64,000 nt of DNA from Eubacteriales bacterium (GTDB lineage Bacteria > Bacillota > Clostridia > Oscillospirales > CAG-272), in contig JAZRIJ010000043.1 of NCBI GenBank assembly GCA_045645205.1, forward strand, positions 11,341-75,340, given 5' to 3'. Both the position numbers and the translations under genes were made by a program. Shown in pieces: positions 4,043 through 45,378 of the stretch. How positions within the stretch are numbered: the stretch's first letter is position 1; each line of letters begins with the position of its first letter. The notes beneath the pieces are model-generated. The model made no database searches. It was not told the DNA's origin and worked only from the letters and a program-made list of their open reading frames with translations.

Positions 4043-4882
4043 TTGAAAAATCTGTTTCAAAACAAATTTATGATAGTGCTTATAGTAATTTCTGTGTTGC
4101 TCGTAGGCACGACATCGTTCATCTCAGCTTTAGGCTATACCTCCTATGTCAGAAATGCCATAGGTATTGTTTTAACGCCCGTTCAGCAGGGAGCAAACTT
4201 TATTTTTGACAGCATTGAAAATATTTTTTCTTCAAAAGAAGACTACAAGAAGCTGAAAAAAGAAAATGAAGAATTAAAAAAGCAACTTGCCGATAACAAA
4301 GCTTGTCTTTCCGAGGCAGAGCTTGCAATTGCACAATACAAAGAGCTGAAAAATTACCTCGGCATTAAGGAAGAACATACCAACATTACTTTTGAAAACG
4401 CAGTCGTAACAGGCAGACAGTCAGGCACACACACAACGATATATACCGTAAACAAGGGTACCTATCACGGCATTAACCCCGGTATGCCTGTTATAGACAA
4501 TTACGGTGTTGTTGGCTGTGTCAGCGAGGCAGGACTTACATGGTGCAAGGTTACATCGGTTATTGAACCTGATATCTCATTAGGTATAATTGTTGAACGA
4601 ACAGGAGACAGCGGTATTTGTAACGGAAGCTTTACGGCAGCAAAGAACGGACTTTGTGTTGTGTCATACCTTCCTGCAGATACTGACATTAAAGAAGGTG
4701 ACATAATAATTACATCAGATGAAAGCTCTGTGTACCCAAAGGGACTTCTTGTAGGAACGATAAAATCAATTGAACCTGATCCCGTTTCAAGAGAAATAAA
4801 AGCATACGTTGAACCGGCGTCAAATCTTACGGAAGTAGAAAAGGTAATGATAATTACCGGATTTGAAAGCGTTTATGAATAA
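4043..4882 (+). CDS. mreC: rod shape-determining protein MreC
   Basis: N-terminal TM segment, a coiled coil (KKENEELKKQLADN) and a C-terminal beta domain with GDIIITS...YPKGLLVGTI. It follows mreB. Confidence 0.9.
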   Translation: MKNLFQNKFMIVLIVISVLLVGTTSFISALGYTSYVRNAIGIVLTPVQQGANFIFDSIENIFSSKEDYKKLKKENEELKKQLADNKACLSEAELAIAQYKELKNYLGIKEEHTNITFENAVVTGRQSGTHTTIYTVNKGTYHGINPGMPVIDNYGVVGCVSEAGLTWCKVTSVIEPDISLGIIVERTGDSGICNGSFTAAKNGLCVVSYLPADTDIKEGDIIITSDESSVYPKGLLVGTIKSIEPDPVSREIKAYVEPASNLTEVEKVMIITGFESVYE

Positions 4883-5420
4883 GAATTTCAGTTTAGATTA
4901 TTTATTGGATATACTTATTTACGGTCTGCTTGCCATACTACTTGCGGTATTGCAAACGACCCTTTTGCCGCGCTTTCAGATATATAACGCTCTGCCCGAT
5001 ATAATAATAGGCGCTGTCTGCTGTATCGGGGTATACAGAAGAGAGAACATTTCGGCGCTTTTCGGTTTATTTGCCGGACTATGTGTTGAAGCTTTGGGCA
5101 GCACGGGTCTTTCTTTACTTCCTCTGTTTTATACCTTTGCAGGCTATGTCTGCGGAAGAGTGGGAACAAACGCAAGAGAAAAAGCTCACTTTGCCGCATT
5201 TCTCATATCCCTGCCTTTGCTATGCCTTTCAAGAACAGTTCTTTCATTCTTTAATCATTTTATAAATTACTTTGGAAATTTAGATTTTAAACAACTTTTT
5301 CTCTTTACCATTTTACCCGAATATATATATACTCTCGTTATGTGTTTTCCCGTTTTTTTGTTGGTAAAGCTATTTGAGATCCCATTAAATGCCACAAGGA
5401 AGAGAGGAGGATTGTATTGA
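4875..5420 (+). CDS. mreD: rod shape-determining protein MreD
   Basis: Polytopic membrane protein. Its ATG at 4875 overlaps the mreC stop (ATGAATAA) and it sits in the canonical mreBCD position. Confidence 0.8.
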   Translation: MNKNFSLDYLLDILIYGLLAILLAVLQTTLLPRFQIYNALPDIIIGAVCCIGVYRRENISALFGLFAGLCVEALGSTGLSLLPLFYTFAGYVCGRVGTNAREKAHFAAFLISLPLLCLSRTVLSFFNHFINYFGNLDFKQLFLFTILPEYIYTLVMCFPVFLLVKLFEIPLNATRKRGGLY

Positions 5421-8798: not shown

Positions 8799-8832
8799 CA
8801 AAAAAGGAGGCAAATGCCTCCTTTAAATTTTT
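8799..8832. terminator. bidirectional intrinsic terminator between the convergent LRR gene and pgsA
   Basis: Stem AAAGGAGGC / GCCTCCTTT (8803..8824), flanked by an A-run and a T-run. Confidence 0.7.
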
Positions 8833-24603: not shown

Positions 24604-24858
24604 GGTATTTTTCTCCTTAAAAATATCATTATTATTTTTTGTTATTGGAAATTCAATGGGATCCTTCGACTGCGAGGGCACTGCCCTCTCCGCTCAGGAT
24701 GACCATTTAAGGAACGGTTGTGCACAAACATCATACTGTAGGCTAACACAGTTCGCTGCATACAGCACAACTGTATCTCTTATCTTTTATCTATTCAATA
24801 TTATCTAAAATGACAGACTTCAAGTGATACCGCCGACGGCGGTATTACTTATCTTACT

Positions 24859-41026: not shown

Positions 41027-41535
41027 AACCTTTTCTCCGCAAATCTACCGAAAACTAAAGCCAATGCTCCTGTTATTATTCCCGTTATAACCGACACGGG
41101 CAGCAACCATTCAAGATACCAAAATATAGCAGTATCCCCGAAAAAAACGGATGCTACGCATATCTGCCCTATGTTGTGCAATGACGCGCAGGCAACCGAT
41201 ATACCGATAAAGCTTACTCTATCCTTTATAACATATTTTGAAAGTATTAAGAAAACAAACGAAAGTAAACCGCCTCCGAGGGAAAACAAAAACGAGGTAG
41301 GCGTACCGAACAAGAGTGCGGTCAATACGCTTTTTGCAAGCATTATCATGAATGCATCAAGCGTTCCGAGATAGTATATTGAAAGCATAACGCAAATATT
41401 TGCAAGCCCTAACTTAAAGCCCGGAATGGGTATGACAAACTGCAAAGGAATAAGCGTCTCGGCGTAAGAAAAGATCAATGCCGCTGCCGCAAAAAGACCG
41501 CCGAAAGCTGCCCTTTTAGCCGACAATGTAGTCAT
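41023..41535 (-). CDS. Gx transporter family membrane protein (Hpre_diP_synt_I-like)
   Basis: 170 aa with 5 TM segments. ATGA overlap with apbE. This is the usual partner of NusG_II proteins. Confidence 0.7.
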   Translation of the reverse strand: MTTLSAKRAAFGGLFAAAALIFSYAETLIPLQFVIPIPGFKLGLANICVMLSIYYLGTLDAFMIMLAKSVLTALLFGTPTSFLFSLGGGLLSFVFLILSKYVIKDRVSFIGISVACASLHNIGQICVASVFFGDTAIFWYLEWLLPVSVITGIITGALALVFGRFAEKRL

Positions 41536-41884
41536 AATCAGCCTCCCCCTCTCCTGTTATTTTCACGAAAAGCCTTGCGGGAATGCAGGCAATAGATTCT
41601 CCGGTATCTGATATTTTTCCCATATGAACACAGCTCTGCTCAGGGCAATTTGAGTCTGTAACAACGACTTCGCCGTTTTCAATAACAACGCACAGCTTGA
41701 CACCGCCGTTTTCTATATTAACGGTTCTGTTTTCATCAAGAAGGTATTCTGTTTCTTTGCCGTCGATCGAGACCACGACCCGCTCCCCCGACTCAAAACC
41801 AAAAAGGCGGAAGCAAAAAACCCCCGCCGTTATAAGCAATATTACGGATATAATAACGATATCGCCTAACTTGACCTTTTTCAT
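41516..41884 (-). CDS. NusG domain II-containing (DUF1312) membrane-anchored protein
   Basis: N-terminal TM segment, then the pattern SNCPEQSCVHMG...IACIPARL. The start is taken at MKKVKLG after an AAAGGTG RBS. Confidence 0.75.
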   Translation of the reverse strand: MKKVKLGDIVIISVILLITAGVFCFRLFGFESGERVVVSIDGKETEYLLDENRTVNIENGGVKLCVVIENGEVVVTDSNCPEQSCVHMGKISDTGESIACIPARLFVKITGEGEADYDYIVG

Positions 41885-42022
41885 GTAACACCTTTTTGTG
41901 AAATCTTTATCTTCAACGAAAATTATACACTTTTTTATCATAAGTGTCAACATGATTTTCGGTTAATATGTTTAATAAAAACTATGTGTTTTTCACTTAA
42001 ACAAAAATTGTGGCTGCCCACT

Positions 42023-42334
42023 TCATTTCTTAATAAGATCTTTTACCAATGATGCAATAGTATCAAGCTGAGTATCATTCAGCTTCTTCATATCATCGAC
42101 AATAGCGGTTAGTTTAGAAGGATTTGCAGAGCTAATATCAAAAAACTCTGCAGGCGACACCCCTAAGTACTGACATATATAGAAAATCCCAGCCAATGAA
42201 GGCATAGATTTTCCAGTTTCAATATTATTAATATATCCTGCGTTCTGCCCAATAGACAAACTCATTTCACGGGCAGATACTCTTTTTTGTACTCGAAGCT
42301 TTGCAAGCCTCAATGCAAAATCCTTTTCATCCAT
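42023..42334 (-). CDS. XRE-family helix-turn-helix transcriptional regulator
   Basis: LRLAKLRVQKRVSAREMSLSIGQNAGYINNIETGKSMPSL is a classic HTH_3 (Cro/cI) motif. Confidence 0.9.
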   Translation of the reverse strand: MDEKDFALRLAKLRVQKRVSAREMSLSIGQNAGYINNIETGKSMPSLAGIFYICQYLGVSPAEFFDISSANPSKLTAIVDDMKKLNDTQLDTIASLVKDLIKK

Positions 42335-42405
42335 TTAAACACCACCTTTATTATATTATATCCCATACAAATAGCAGAAATATGTGTTTAAAGGCTTTAA
42401 TGCTA

Positions 42406-42471
42406 TTGATTTATTGGTTTGTAGATGATATAATACTAGAAATAACGGATACTAACCAATTCAATTGGTTA
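42406..42471 (+). promoter_or_regulatory. promoter TTGATT-17-TATAAT plus a perfect 19-bp palindrome TAACCAATT-c-AATTGGTTA (candidate XRE operator)
   Basis: The -35 is at 42406..42411, the -10 at 42429..42434, and the palindrome at 42453..42471, about 19 nt downstream of the -10. Confidence 0.6.
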
Positions 42472-42566
42472 ATAAAATTTGGCGGTACGTATCAAACAAT
42501 TTAGTACACTAAAAAACTAAAGAAAGAATCTATTAAAATCAATAAATAAAAAAGGATATAAAACAA

Positions 42567-43211
42567 ATGAAACGTGAATATTTATATGAACCATATCCAC
42601 TAAATTTTTTAAAGACAATAGCTATCAATTGGAATTTTGATGTTCCCACAGAAATTACTAACGATATTGCCGCAGGAGTGCAATACGTAATATCAACCTT
42701 GTCTGATAAAGGTCAGAAAGTTATTTATTATCGGTATCAAGAACGAAAAACTTATGAAGAAATTGCTGAAATTATGTCTTTATCAATAGAACGAATACGC
42801 CAGATTGAATATAACGCTTTGCATAAACTTCAAAAACCATACCGCTGGAATATAATGCAGTATGGTGTTATTGGATATACCCAAAAAATGTCAGACCTTT
42901 CCTATGAAAGAGGTTATAATGAAGGCTATACAGTCGGATATCATTCAGGCGTTCATAATGCGGGAGACGGTGTTGAAAAAAATCTTTTACTTCTTGATTG
43001 TTTAAAACAGCCAATTGAACAATTAAATTTATCAGTACGTTCGTTTAACTGTCTGAAACGGTCTGGGTATAACACAGTTGGAGAAGTATCACGTCTTGAT
43101 AATGAAAGTATTCAACAGATTAAAAGCCTTAAAAAAAACAATAAAAATGAGATTGCCAATGTTTTGGAAAATTTGGGTATAAACCATACTGCATGGTCAA
43201 TTTATTTATAG
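42567..43211 (+). CDS. fusion protein: sigma-70 region-4-like HTH + RNA polymerase alpha-subunit C-terminal-domain-like module
   Basis: The segment SLSIERIRQIEYNALHKLQKP is region 4.2-like. A Gly/Tyr linker follows. LNLSVRSFNCLKRSGYNTVGEV...IKSLKKNNKNEIANVLENLGI is alpha-CTD helix-hairpin-helix-like. Confidence 0.8.
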   Translation: MKREYLYEPYPLNFLKTIAINWNFDVPTEITNDIAAGVQYVISTLSDKGQKVIYYRYQERKTYEEIAEIMSLSIERIRQIEYNALHKLQKPYRWNIMQYGVIGYTQKMSDLSYERGYNEGYTVGYHSGVHNAGDGVEKNLLLLDCLKQPIEQLNLSVRSFNCLKRSGYNTVGEVSRLDNESIQQIKSLKKNNKNEIANVLENLGINHTAWSIYL

Positions 43212-43272
43212 TAAAGCATTAACTACAACTTCATACATACCCCCCTTTTTCATGTTATTTTTGCAAAAGCTC

Positions 43273-43301
43273 TTGACTTTTAATAAGGTTGGTGATAAAA
43301 T
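43273..43301 (+). promoter_or_regulatory. candidate promoter of TetR-ABC operon (TTGACT-17-TAAAAT, TG-extended)
   Basis: TTGACT lies at 43273..43278, followed by a 17-nt spacer ending GGTGA, then TAAAAT at 43296..43301. Confidence 0.5.
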
Positions 43302-43344
43302 AACAATCGATATATAACAACAACTATATTAAGAGGGGGACATT

Positions 43345-43905
43345 ATGCCGCCTAAAGTAAAAATAACAAAAGAAGATATTATAAACGCCGCCGTTGACAT
43401 TGTACGTAATAACGGAGCGCAGGCAATTAATGCAAGAACGGTTGCCTCAATATTGAACTGTTCTACACAGCCTGTATTCTCTAATTTTGCAACAATGGAT
43501 GAACTACGCATTGCCGTTGTAGAAAAATCAGATTTATTGTGCGAAGAATATATGCAACGTGAAGTAGAAAGCGGAAACTTCCCCACTTACAAGGCAAACG
43601 GTATGGCGTATATTCGATTTGCCAAAGAGGAGAAAGAGCTGTTTAAGCTTTTATATATGCGCAACAGAATGGGAGAAGCAATTCCCGAAGAATCGGAGCA
43701 TATCAACAAAATGGAATCTATTGTGCATAATAACACCGGACTTGTCGGCGCAGATGCAAGGCTGTTCCATCTTGAGATGTGGGCGTATGTTCACGGAATT
43801 GCTACAATGTTTGCAACAGGATTTCTTGATCTTGATTGGGAGCTTGTCAGCAAAATGCTTACAGACGCCTATCAAGGACTGAGAAAGCAGTACGGAATGG
43901 AGTAA
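43345..43905 (+). CDS. TetR/AcrR family transcriptional regulator
   Basis: N-terminal HTH (IINAAVDIVRNNGAQAINARTVASILNCSTQPVFSNF) with an all-helical C-terminal domain. Confidence 0.88.
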   Translation: MPPKVKITKEDIINAAVDIVRNNGAQAINARTVASILNCSTQPVFSNFATMDELRIAVVEKSDLLCEEYMQREVESGNFPTYKANGMAYIRFAKEEKELFKLLYMRNRMGEAIPEESEHINKMESIVHNNTGLVGADARLFHLEMWAYVHGIATMFATGFLDLDWELVSKMLTDAYQGLRKQYGME

Positions 43906-43911
43906 TTAGAA

Positions 43912-44640
43912 ATGGATGCTATCAAAATAGAAGGATTAACTAAAAAATATAATGATGTGGTTGCAGTTGACAATCTCTTTCTTTCTATTTACAAGGGAGA
44001 GTTATTTTCTCTGCTCGGTGTAAACGGAGCCGGCAAAACCACAACAATCAAAATGCTTTCCTGTCTTACGCAGCCAACAAGCGGAGATGCTTTTTTAAAC
44101 GGAAAAAGTATTTGCAAAGATACTTCCGCTGTAAAAAAACTGATTGCAGTATCACCGCAGGAAACTGCTGTTGCCCGCGGTCTTTCGGTAAGAGAAAATC
44201 TTGAACTAATGTGTGGAGTTCACGGATTTCCTACCGAAAAACGCGAGAAAAAAATAGATGAGCTTACCAAGCTTCTCGGATTAAATGAAATCAGCAACAA
44301 GAAGGCGGCAAAGCTTTCAGGCGGTTGGCAGCGCAGACTGAGTATTGCAATGGCGCTTATCAGTGAGCCGGAAATTTTGTTCCTTGACGAACCCACACTT
44401 GGACTTGATGTAATCGCACGTAGTGATCTGTGGGATATTATTCGTTCCTTAAAGGGTAAAGTAACAATTATTCTTACAACTCACTATATGGAAGAAGCCG
44501 AGGCGCTTTCTGACCGTATTGCAATTATGAAAGACGGCAAACTTCTGATTTGTGATACTGCCGATAAGATTAAGGAAACAGCGCAGACTGATAATTTTGA
44601 ACAAGCCTTTGTTCGTATTGTTAGGGGGATGAAGAAATGA
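43912..44640 (+). CDS. ABC transporter ATP-binding protein
   Basis: Walker A GVNGAGKTT, signature LSGGWQRRL, and Walker B ILFLDEPT. Confidence 0.93.
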   Translation: MDAIKIEGLTKKYNDVVAVDNLFLSIYKGELFSLLGVNGAGKTTTIKMLSCLTQPTSGDAFLNGKSICKDTSAVKKLIAVSPQETAVARGLSVRENLELMCGVHGFPTEKREKKIDELTKLLGLNEISNKKAAKLSGGWQRRLSIAMALISEPEILFLDEPTLGLDVIARSDLWDIIRSLKGKVTIILTTHYMEEAEALSDRIAIMKDGKLLICDTADKIKETAQTDNFEQAFVRIVRGMKK

Positions 44641-45368
44641 GAATGTGGACATTTGCAAACAGAAACACAAAAGAAATTTTGCGAGACCCTCTCAATTTGG
44701 CTTTTGGATTGGGCTTTCCACTTGTACTGATTTTTTTACTAACCGCAATACAGGCAAATGCTCCTGTAAGTCTTTTTGAGATACAACATTTAACACCCGG
44801 TATTACAATATTCGGTCTTTCCTTTATAACGCTGTTTTCATCAACAATAATAGCAAAAGACAGAGGCAGCTCCCTTCTCCAAAGGCTATATACCACACCG
44901 ATGACTTCCATTGATTTTATTCTCGGATATACATTACCCATTATCCCTATTGCGATTGCTCAATGTATAGTTTGCTATATTGCAGCCATCGTTCTCGGAC
45001 TTGAAGTTACGGTAAATATTTTATATGCCGTTGTATTTATTATTCCGGTATCTATACTTTTTATTGCCCTCGGACTTCTTTGCGGAAGTGTGTTTACCGA
45101 TAAGCAAGTCGGCGGTATATGCGGCGCATTGCTTACAAACCTATCCGCTTGGTTATCGGGAATATGGTTTGACCTTGAGCTTGTCGGCGGAATTTTTCAA
45201 AAGATTGCAAATTTGTTGCCCTTTGTTCACGCCGTAGAGTTAGAACGCGCCGTACTCTCAGGAAATTTTGCTGATGTTTTTCCTCATATATGGTGGGTAC
45301 TTGCATATGATGCCGTTGTGCTCACAGCAGCAGTATTATTGTTTCTGCGTCAAATGAATAAACAATAA
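44637..45368 (+). CDS. ABC-2 type transporter permease
   Basis: 243 aa with 6 TM segments. An ATGA overlap links it to the ATPase gene. Confidence 0.85.
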   Translation: MRMWTFANRNTKEILRDPLNLAFGLGFPLVLIFLLTAIQANAPVSLFEIQHLTPGITIFGLSFITLFSSTIIAKDRGSSLLQRLYTTPMTSIDFILGYTLPIIPIAIAQCIVCYIAAIVLGLEVTVNILYAVVFIIPVSILFIALGLLCGSVFTDKQVGGICGALLTNLSAWLSGIWFDLELVGGIFQKIANLLPFVHAVELERAVLSGNFADVFPHIWWVLAYDAVVLTAAVLLFLRQMNKQ

Positions 45369-45378
45369 ATAAAATCTC

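Follow-up and report, generated by a model that had tools for sequence, protein, structure and literature searches.

A phage-associated protein family that joins sigma-70 region 4 to an RNA polymerase alpha-CTD, and a member beside an XRE repressor gene in a Clostridia genome

What is the role of a protein that carries, in a single chain, both region 4 of a sigma-70 factor and the C-terminal domain of the RNA polymerase (RNAP) alpha subunit (alpha-CTD)? This question is raised by a gene at 42567..43211 (plus strand; 214 amino acids [aa]) in a stretch of 64,000 nucleotides (nt) from an Eubacteriales bacterium (assembly GCA_045645205.1, contig JAZRIJ010000043.1, positions 11,341 to 75,340), which as a whole is referred to here as the window. 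In the map of open reading frames (ORFs), the gene is divergent to an ORF of 103 aa at 42023..42334 (minus strand), which encodes an XRE-family repressor. Sigma region 4 and the alpha-CTD are the RNAP modules that read the -35/UP region and that receive most activator contacts. We found that the encoded fusion protein is a member of a large uncharacterised family, in which a YPxNL cap precedes a SigA-like region 4 and a helical linker connects the latter with an RpoA-like alpha-CTD, and that this family is carried by phages and other mobile elements.

Two RNA polymerase modules in one protein

Both halves of the fusion protein were matched by Pfam profiles well above the gathering cutoffs, Sigma70_r4 (PF04545) on residues 42-90 with 53.5 bits (cutoff 24.1) and RNA_pol_A_CTD (PF03118) on residues 144-201 with 56.1 bits (cutoff 23.8). 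This bears out the original prediction, made from the letters of the window alone, that the two modules share one chain. No Pfam match to Sigma70_r2 or to the alpha N-terminal domain (RNA_pol_L/RNA_pol_A_bac) was obtained on the protein; true RpoA matches carry PF01000 and PF01193. Moreover, the NCBIfam rpoA and rpoD models were matched at their C-terminal ends only, with residues 30-99 aligning to the end of RpoD. Compared with a sigma-70 factor, the protein has the region 4 helix-turn-helix (HTH), which also matched SigA region 4 in the Protein Data Bank (PDB), and lacks region 2; compared with RpoA, it has the (HhH)2 fold of the alpha-CTD and lacks the N-terminal domain for dimerisation and assembly. 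Since sigma regions 1-3 are missing, the protein can neither melt promoters nor serve as a sigma factor, and since the alpha N-terminal domain is missing, it is not a core subunit, both as had been predicted.

An AlphaFold2 (AF2) model built from 28 homologues had a mean predicted local distance difference test score (pLDDT) of 83.7. The first 100 residues were confidently folded, residues 101-122 formed a helix, residues 133-143 (pLDDT <50) were disordered, and the C-terminal domain was again folded. Using Foldseek, we observed superposition of this modelled C-terminal domain on the alpha-CTD chains 3n97_B, 1z3e_B and 1lb2 with a root mean square deviation of 1.2-1.4 Å. Along the gene, all on the plus strand, the order is as follows: an N-terminal cap (residues 1-29, 42653 being its last nucleotide; 42567..42653) with the family motif [YWF]-P-x-N-L, here YPLNF at residues 10-14 (AF2 pLDDT 85-94); the sigma-70 region 4 module (residues 30-99, Pfam core 42-90; 42654..42863), matched in Pfam, NCBIfam and the PDB; a linker (residues 100-143; 42864..42995), in which a helix with a G-Y-x-x-G-Y-x-x-G Gly/Tyr ladder precedes the disordered stretch; the RNAP alpha-CTD module (residues 144-206; 42996..43184), recovered with Pfam, the PDB and Foldseek; and a C-terminal tail, HTAWSIYL plus stop codon (43185..43211), which in the alignment is common to the closest relatives (P0002-P0005) only. 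For the cap, a profile of 74 sequences was without a match among the solved structures of the PDB at E<=10, RpoB chains included. A mimic of the beta flap tip, considered because YPxNL(A)xAIFG resembled the flap-tip helix by eye, was rejected on the result for RpoB.

A large family in phages and other mobile elements

The fusion protein had been described as an orphan, a view that does not survive database searches. A word-indexed search of 5.8 billion proteins returned 28 with the same two Pfam domains, including the window protein itself (P0001), to which P0002 is 51%, P0003-P0005 are 39% and the others are 26-35% identical. A profile built from these 28, compared with 1.84 billion representatives (clusters at 50% identity) matched 2,313 proteins at E<=1e-30; this threshold is out of reach for a lone region 4 or a lone alpha-CTD, and the 2,313 thus carry both modules or repeated alpha-CTDs. 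The window protein matched this profile with 239 bits over positions 11-224, and it has the cap motif of the family as well as a SigA-like region 4, helical linker and alpha-CTD in one chain.

Variation in architecture was followed in a sample of 172 proteins, made up of the best 150 of the 2,313 profile matches and the remaining two-domain proteins of the 28. Single-unit members of 199-413 aa account for 124 of the 172 and multi-unit proteins for 48. An N-terminal extension is present in 44 of the 124 single-unit members and contains an XRE-type HTH_3 domain in 30 of these 44 (about a quarter of single-unit members); this fusion within the same chain ties the module to sequence-specific DNA targeting. 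The multi-unit relatives (among P0121-P0261) include proteins with duplicated sigma4-alphaCTD units and proteins in which as many as about nine alpha-CTDs follow one another in tandem. The 1,003-aa P0121 combines three Spo0A_C domains with a sigma-4 module and four to five alpha-CTDs, and a few others are fused to HARE-HTH, ResIII/Helicase_C or SNF2 domains.

A scan of IMG/VR gave 360 relatives, and about 30 of the best 80 loci encode full-length members. On viral and metagenomic contigs, the genes within four of the family gene encode an SNF2-type helicase, DNA methylase, single-stranded DNA-binding protein (SSB), DnaB and DnaD, and in several phages the terminase, portal and head genes follow 5-15 genes downstream. 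Many members thus lie in viral contigs, either within a replication module or immediately behind one. In two of the sampled phages, a separate PHROG-36 regulator lies closer to the terminase; the region-4 part of the window protein showed a weak match to this PHROG 36 'transcriptional regulator' (E=8e-7).

The two modules were found together in none of the GenBank phage records (INPHARED), queried with the window protein and the family consensus, and in none of the PLSDB plasmids, for which the query was the window protein only and the family consensus was not run. NCBIfam, PHROGs and PADLOC hold no whole-protein model, and in PADLOC no defence-system membership was obtained, with weak domain-level matches only (PglW, 17.7 bits; MzaA, 14.7 bits). 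The architecture was also absent from full-text literature searches and from two comparative-genomic surveys (Aravind lab), and no already characterised regulator family was found in the literature or in these three collections. With no cultured phage record, plasmid record (window-protein query), curated family or paper found, this is an experimentally open family.

Conserved surfaces and possible roles

Conservation was calculated over the 124 aligned single-unit members, and residues are named in E. coli numbering; those listed for the two modules are DNA contacts of sigma-70 region 4 and of the alpha-CTD in E. coli. The cap motif is Y79/W12/F7 - P97 - x - N98 - L87 (%) and is followed by an amphipathic helix. 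In region 4, the family consensus is almost the same as Firmicutes SigA (4g6d, 7ckq) except that four residues of a loop are missing, and members have a median identity of 72% to SigA 4.2. Here R586 is kept in 100%, R588 and Q589 in 98% each, E585 in 91%, R603 in 76% and R584 in 67%. For the alpha-CTD, the median identity to B. subtilis RpoA is 54%, and R265 (100%), G296 (99%), N268 (98%), C269 (95%), S299 (86%) and K298 (74%, with Arg in another 16%) are retained. The acidic 258/259/261 positions are largely retained across the family. In E. coli, the 261 determinant touches sigma R603, and the joint retention of the acidic positions and of the R603 equivalent fits a retained sigma4-alphaCTD contact. 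Between the modules, the linker of most members has hydrophobic peaks at profile columns 114/117/121/124/128/131/135/138, a 3-4-3-4 heptad over about 25 residues. This coiled-coil signature suggests that members may be dimeric.

We tentatively propose, at somewhat less than an even chance, that family members are dimeric DNA-binding factors that would read -35-like hexamers and the flanking minor groove and so control the access of sigmaA holoenzyme to promoters. The fusion protein would function by itself, as a dimeric transcription factor that binds DNA: its sigma-4 HTH would read -35-like hexamers, and its alpha-CTD would bind the adjoining A/T-rich minor groove and/or make the native sigma4-alphaCTD contact. 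With the upstream half of sigmaA-type promoters covered in this way, host RNAP would be either excluded or held through the natural sigma4/alpha-CTD interface. The activator and decoy roles put forward in the original prediction may both still apply.

Several observations weigh against this proposal. In the AF2 model, the inter-domain geometry is undefined (predicted template modelling score, pTM, 0.55), and the proposal assigns no function to the near-invariant N-terminal cap. When 24 phage loci with a family gene were searched for enriched TTGACA pairs, inverted or direct, the signal was no more than noise with the 3-nt period of codons. Canonical UP/-35 binding seems doubtful for the window copy, which has lost the equivalents of G296, K298, S299 and R584 and has one acidic 261 position. 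Finally, the near-complete retention of host-like surfaces would fit mimicry directed at RNAP or at regulators as well as it fits DNA binding.

Such mimicry is in our view a fairly unlikely alternative. The sigma-4 module would dock on the beta flap and displace or substitute SigA region 4, in an appropriation of the T4 gp33 or AsiA/MotA type, or both modules would be decoys that titrate the usual ligands of host sigma-4 or alpha-CTD, for example activators of the Spo0A type, factors of the Spx type, or effectors by which rival phages act as anti-sigma factors or ADP-ribosylate their target. The close resemblance of the family modules to host SigA region 4 and RpoA CTD extends across entire surfaces, beyond the DNA contacts, whereas the strictest conservation falls on the DNA-contact residues. 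The multi-unit relatives, with their long alpha-CTD arrays and P0121, look like a sponge or scaffold, and the window copy keeps its alpha-CTD fold despite lost DNA contacts; PADLOC, however, gave weak domain matches only. Flap-binding phage sigma-4-only proteins are a known kind (PMC7824862), but the cap profile shows no detectable relation to the beta flap tip or to solved partners of RNAP, and a free sigma-4 would presumably have to compete with the tethered SigA region 4.

The replication genes around the family gene bring up another role, that of an accessory DNA-binding subunit of phage replication, recombination or modification machinery and not of a transcription factor; the subunit might, for example, target the adjacent SNF2 helicase and methylase. 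In the prophages L007 (940..3932) and L018 (9935..12971), the family gene overlaps the start of a gene for an SNF2-type helicase of about 475 aa, which is followed by that for a 304-aa N6_N4 methylase, suggesting a co-translated three-gene unit. The helicase, methylase, SSB, DnaB and DnaD neighbours and the few multi-unit relatives fused to ResIII, Helicase_C or SNF2 also favour such a subunit. However, helicase/methylase neighbours occur in a minority of loci only, the loci of the window copy, P0002 and P0003 have no such helicase neighbour, and the kept -35-reading SigA residues point to promoter-type DNA. We regard this role as quite improbable.

The window copy and its XRE-controlled promoter

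Within the family, the window copy is an outlier. Its identity to SigA 4.2 (50%) is the third lowest of the 124 and its identity to the host alpha-CTD (44%) the tenth lowest. In the sigma module, the equivalents of E585, R586, R588 and Q589 are present, and the R584 position is Ile. In the alpha-CTD, R265, N268 and C269 correspond to R158, N161 and C162, and G296, K298 and S299 are changed to K189, N191 and N192, so that three of the six alpha-CTD DNA contacts are gone and the full '265 determinant' is not present. The second helix-hairpin-helix reads SLKKNN versus NLGRKS in the family, and the hairpin glycine (G296 equivalent) is missing in this copy alone among the 124 members. At the 261-determinant positions (E151, Q152 and N154), one acidic residue is left of three. 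The loss of half of the alpha-CTD contacts weakens a simple 'UP-element module' reading for this copy. Its alpha-CTD, with the DNA contacts of the second hairpin lost, would probably now be a protein-contact surface, or be decaying.

In place of the heptad, the linker of the window copy has a Gly/Tyr ladder, GYNEGYTVGYHSG, and the tail ends in W..YL, both traits being common to P0002-P0005. This subclade is found in small mobile contexts. P0002 (L001, 215..3415) lies between an operon of HipB (HTH_3), Couple_hipA and HipA_C genes, resembling HipB-HipS-HipT, and a downstream IS200-like Y1 transposase gene, with a 57-aa ribbon-helix-helix gene directly upstream. P0003 (L010) lies downstream of an integrase gene, two XRE genes and a 216-aa ORF of no known kind. 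In a side observation, the hip-type operon near P0002 was seen to bear three TATACCCGATAGGGTATA-type operators.

The gene divergent to the fusion gene (42023..42334, minus strand, 103 aa) encodes an XRE-family repressor with Pfam matches to HTH_3 and HTH_19. The divergent intergenic region of 232 bp holds both the promoter of the fusion gene and a palindrome. The promoter (42406..42434, plus strand) consists of TTGATT at 42406-42411, a 17-nt spacer and the extended -10 element TGaTATAAT (hexamer 42429-42434; 10/12 in the scan, with TG). The perfect 19-bp palindrome TAACCAATTCAATTGGTTA (TAACCAATT-C-AATTGGTTA) lies at 42453..42471, at about +11 to +29 from the predicted start, and is a putative XRE operator. 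XRE gene, TTGATT-17-TATAAT promoter and palindrome are therefore all as originally predicted, with the TG of the extended -10 in addition. A further half-site, ATTGGTT, lies within the promoter spacer (42413..42419) and is kept at the equivalent position in the homologous loci L173 and L174. AACCAAT occurs 13 times in the window, three of these 13 copies falling within 58 bp at the promoter and palindrome, and two of the three AACCAAT/ATTGGTT half-sites are kept in homologous loci. Perfect palindromes of such size were observed three times in the window versus a mean of 1.5 in shuffled windows, so the argument for an operator is one of location, clustering and conservation. Apart from this one, the window has perfect palindromes with arms >=9 bp only at 8803..8824 (AAAGGAGGCAAATGCCTCCTTT) and 24827..24845 (ATACCGCCGACGGCGGTAT). 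The leader of the fusion gene had no Rfam match at E<=1.

Close homologues of the XRE protein, 75-82% identical to it, fill more than 1,900 clusters, and among the matches listed nearly all are 103 aa long. In every context examined (L173-L183), the homologue is paired divergently with an unrelated ORF of about 160 aa; in L173, for instance, the XRE gene is at 5001-5312 and the partner (MEPFIITLFGHRDL...) at 4372-4857. This partner had no Pfam match of any kind, sigma-type included, and a SLOG/DUF1273-like identity was set aside as a guess without Pfam support. Serine-recombinase fragments, MazE/toxin (toxin-antitoxin) pairs or SNF2-methylase giants are often found beside these loci, and the XRE gene and its partner look like an unstudied regulatory module of mobile elements. 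In L010, a more distant XRE homologue (38% identical) is encoded two genes ahead of P0003, and the TACCGAT-N3-ATCGGTA repeats upstream of this homologue are analogous to the palindrome described above.

By blastn, the window shares with L173-L183 a block at 42025..42460 of about 72% nucleotide identity, comprising the XRE gene and 126 bp of the intergenic region with the divergent extended -10 promoter and two half-sites. The block ends inside the palindrome, the left half of which belongs to the conserved module, the right half lying past the homology breakpoint. As homology stops at about 42460 and the usual partner is unrelated, the pairing of XRE with the fusion gene is secondary, and the original view of the repressor as a dedicated partner has to be given up in favour of a widespread module. 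We infer that the fusion gene (42461-43240) took the place of the usual cargo behind the XRE-controlled promoter, that is, that it would be cargo whose promoter and operator derive from a common XRE module. Repression of this cargo is most likely, with the XRE protein binding the predicted AACCAAT/ATTGGTT sites within the spacer and around +11 to +29. The promoter, the three clustered half-sites and the homology of the module all agree with the earlier reading of this layout as a repressor-controlled switch.

The original prediction had likened this arrangement to the orf9 (XRE)/orf7 (sigma-like) switch of Tn916-type conjugative transposons. The likeness is one of layout, a divergent XRE gene beside a gene with a sigma-like region 4 HTH, and XRE homologues elsewhere often adjoin serine-recombinase fragments. 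However, no xis, int, tra or recombinase genes were apparent around the locus in the ORF map, whose ORFs were not scanned with profiles, the map looks chromosomal, and the usual XRE partner is without any Pfam match. A Tn916-type switch is thus barely credible here, and the analogy is not supported.

The segment is AT-rich as predicted, with a GC content of 0.29-0.33 across 42000-43500 versus about 0.40 in the flanks. The fusion gene is horizontally acquired; it lies in this low-GC islet of 1.3 kb, and its relatives lie beside an integrase (L010), beside a HipBST module and IS200-like transposase (L001), or inside phages. Immediately to its right is a cassette of about 2.1 kb (43242-45375) with genes for TetR (43345-43905), an ABC ATPase (43912-44640) and an ABC permease (44637-45368). 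We detected this cassette by blastn in at least 80 species-level genomes, with 71-88% amino-acid identity, sharp boundaries and unrelated flanks; the genomes are labelled Acutalibacteraceae, Oscillospiraceae, Faecousia, Lachnospiraceae, Selenomonadaceae and others, and the cassette appears to be horizontally mobile. Through TetR orthologues no empty site, that is, the locus without the islet, was obtained, the cassette being in 80 unrelated contexts, of which 0 had the XRE or fusion gene. Farther out, the flanks look chromosomal, with metabolic genes on one side and, on the other, ftsZ and a run of large ORFs that have the look of a cell-division cluster. The origin of the locus is mosaic. Separately, a perfect consensus promoter, TTGACA-17-TATAAT, was seen at 41922..41950 (minus strand), inside the longest ORF of a NusG_II-domain gene (41516..41953); given this position, the true start of that gene is probably the downstream ATG at about 41887 (MKKVKLGD...).

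These surroundings could also be those of a decaying remnant, the cargo of a broken mobile element without a role in the host. The islet contains no other phage genes, lies among chromosomal genes and adjoins an independently mobile TetR-ABC cassette, and the window copy was found on a single contig in a collection of 15 billion proteins. Its unique loss of the invariant hairpin glycine (1/124) and its low identities to the host in both modules would fit decay. Conversely, the ORF is intact, it is preceded by a good ribosome-binding site and by an extended -10 promoter that is strong, AF2 modelled the protein with confidence, and P0002 is intact too, on several contigs, with the same altered hairpin and C-terminal tail. 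The intact P0002 with its common traits suggests a maintained subclade over random decay, and we consider a remnant improbable.

A broader picture can be drawn, which we offer as a doubtful one. Uncultured phages of gut and rumen Clostridia might encode a class of transcription-takeover factors that had gone unrecognised, namely coiled-coil dimers in which copies of host SigA region 4 and of the host RpoA alpha-CTD have been captured and to which XRE, Spo0A_C or tandem alpha-CTDs are sometimes added. These would impersonate the promoter-upstream half of RNAP. They would mask sigmaA promoters or pre-load them, or else they would sequester regulators and the effectors of rival phages that are aimed at sigma-4/alpha-CTD, and the window would hold a domesticated, XRE-gated copy. 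If true, a widespread phage family that fuses, and apparently dimerises, near-exact copies of the two modules would be a new route to compete with or steer host transcription. The locus itself illustrates how such a gene may be slotted behind a ready-made repressor/operator module, a few kb from ftsZ.

Comparison with known systems

In comparison with SigA/RpoD region 4, the family consensus agrees with the SigA of B. subtilis and S. aureus at all but 2 of 32 positions, with the -35 contacts conserved. Unlike SigA, the family is without regions 1-3, has a loop between 4.1 and 4.2 that is four residues shorter, carries the YPxNL cap ahead of the module and has the alpha-CTD fused to it. The likeness to the alpha-CTD of RpoA consists of the Pfam RNA_pol_A_CTD match, the close superposition of the model and, in the window copy, the kept R265, N268 and C269; the differences are the missing alpha N-terminal domain and the K/N/N of the second hairpin.

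The nearest described kind are the phage 'minimal' sigma-4-only proteins and T4 gp33, which have no alpha-CTD or dimerising linker. gp33 binds the flap and not DNA, whereas in the sigma4-alphaCTD family the DNA-contact residues are the best conserved. These phage proteins are single region-4-like HTH modules that work with host RNAP (PMC7824862). T4 AsiA/MotA, lambda CI and class I/II activators share with the family a possible control at the -35/UP region through sigma-4 and alpha-CTD surfaces; those proteins bind the host modules, whereas the fusion protein itself copies them, and there is no homology.

Late activators of the RinA/ArpU/LtrC type are encoded by genes that sit directly upstream of terS, and of the gene families that ranked highest among the neighbours (up to 4 genes away) of the sampled family genes, none was a terminase. 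These activators are transcription regulators of Gram-positive phages (PMC3753634). Like the family, they are phage-encoded regulators located after the replication module, and they are not known to have an alpha-CTD. The sigma4-alphaCTD family is large and seems never to have been studied, and the kind to which it belongs is a known one, that of phage or mobile-element regulators with a sigma-like HTH at their core.

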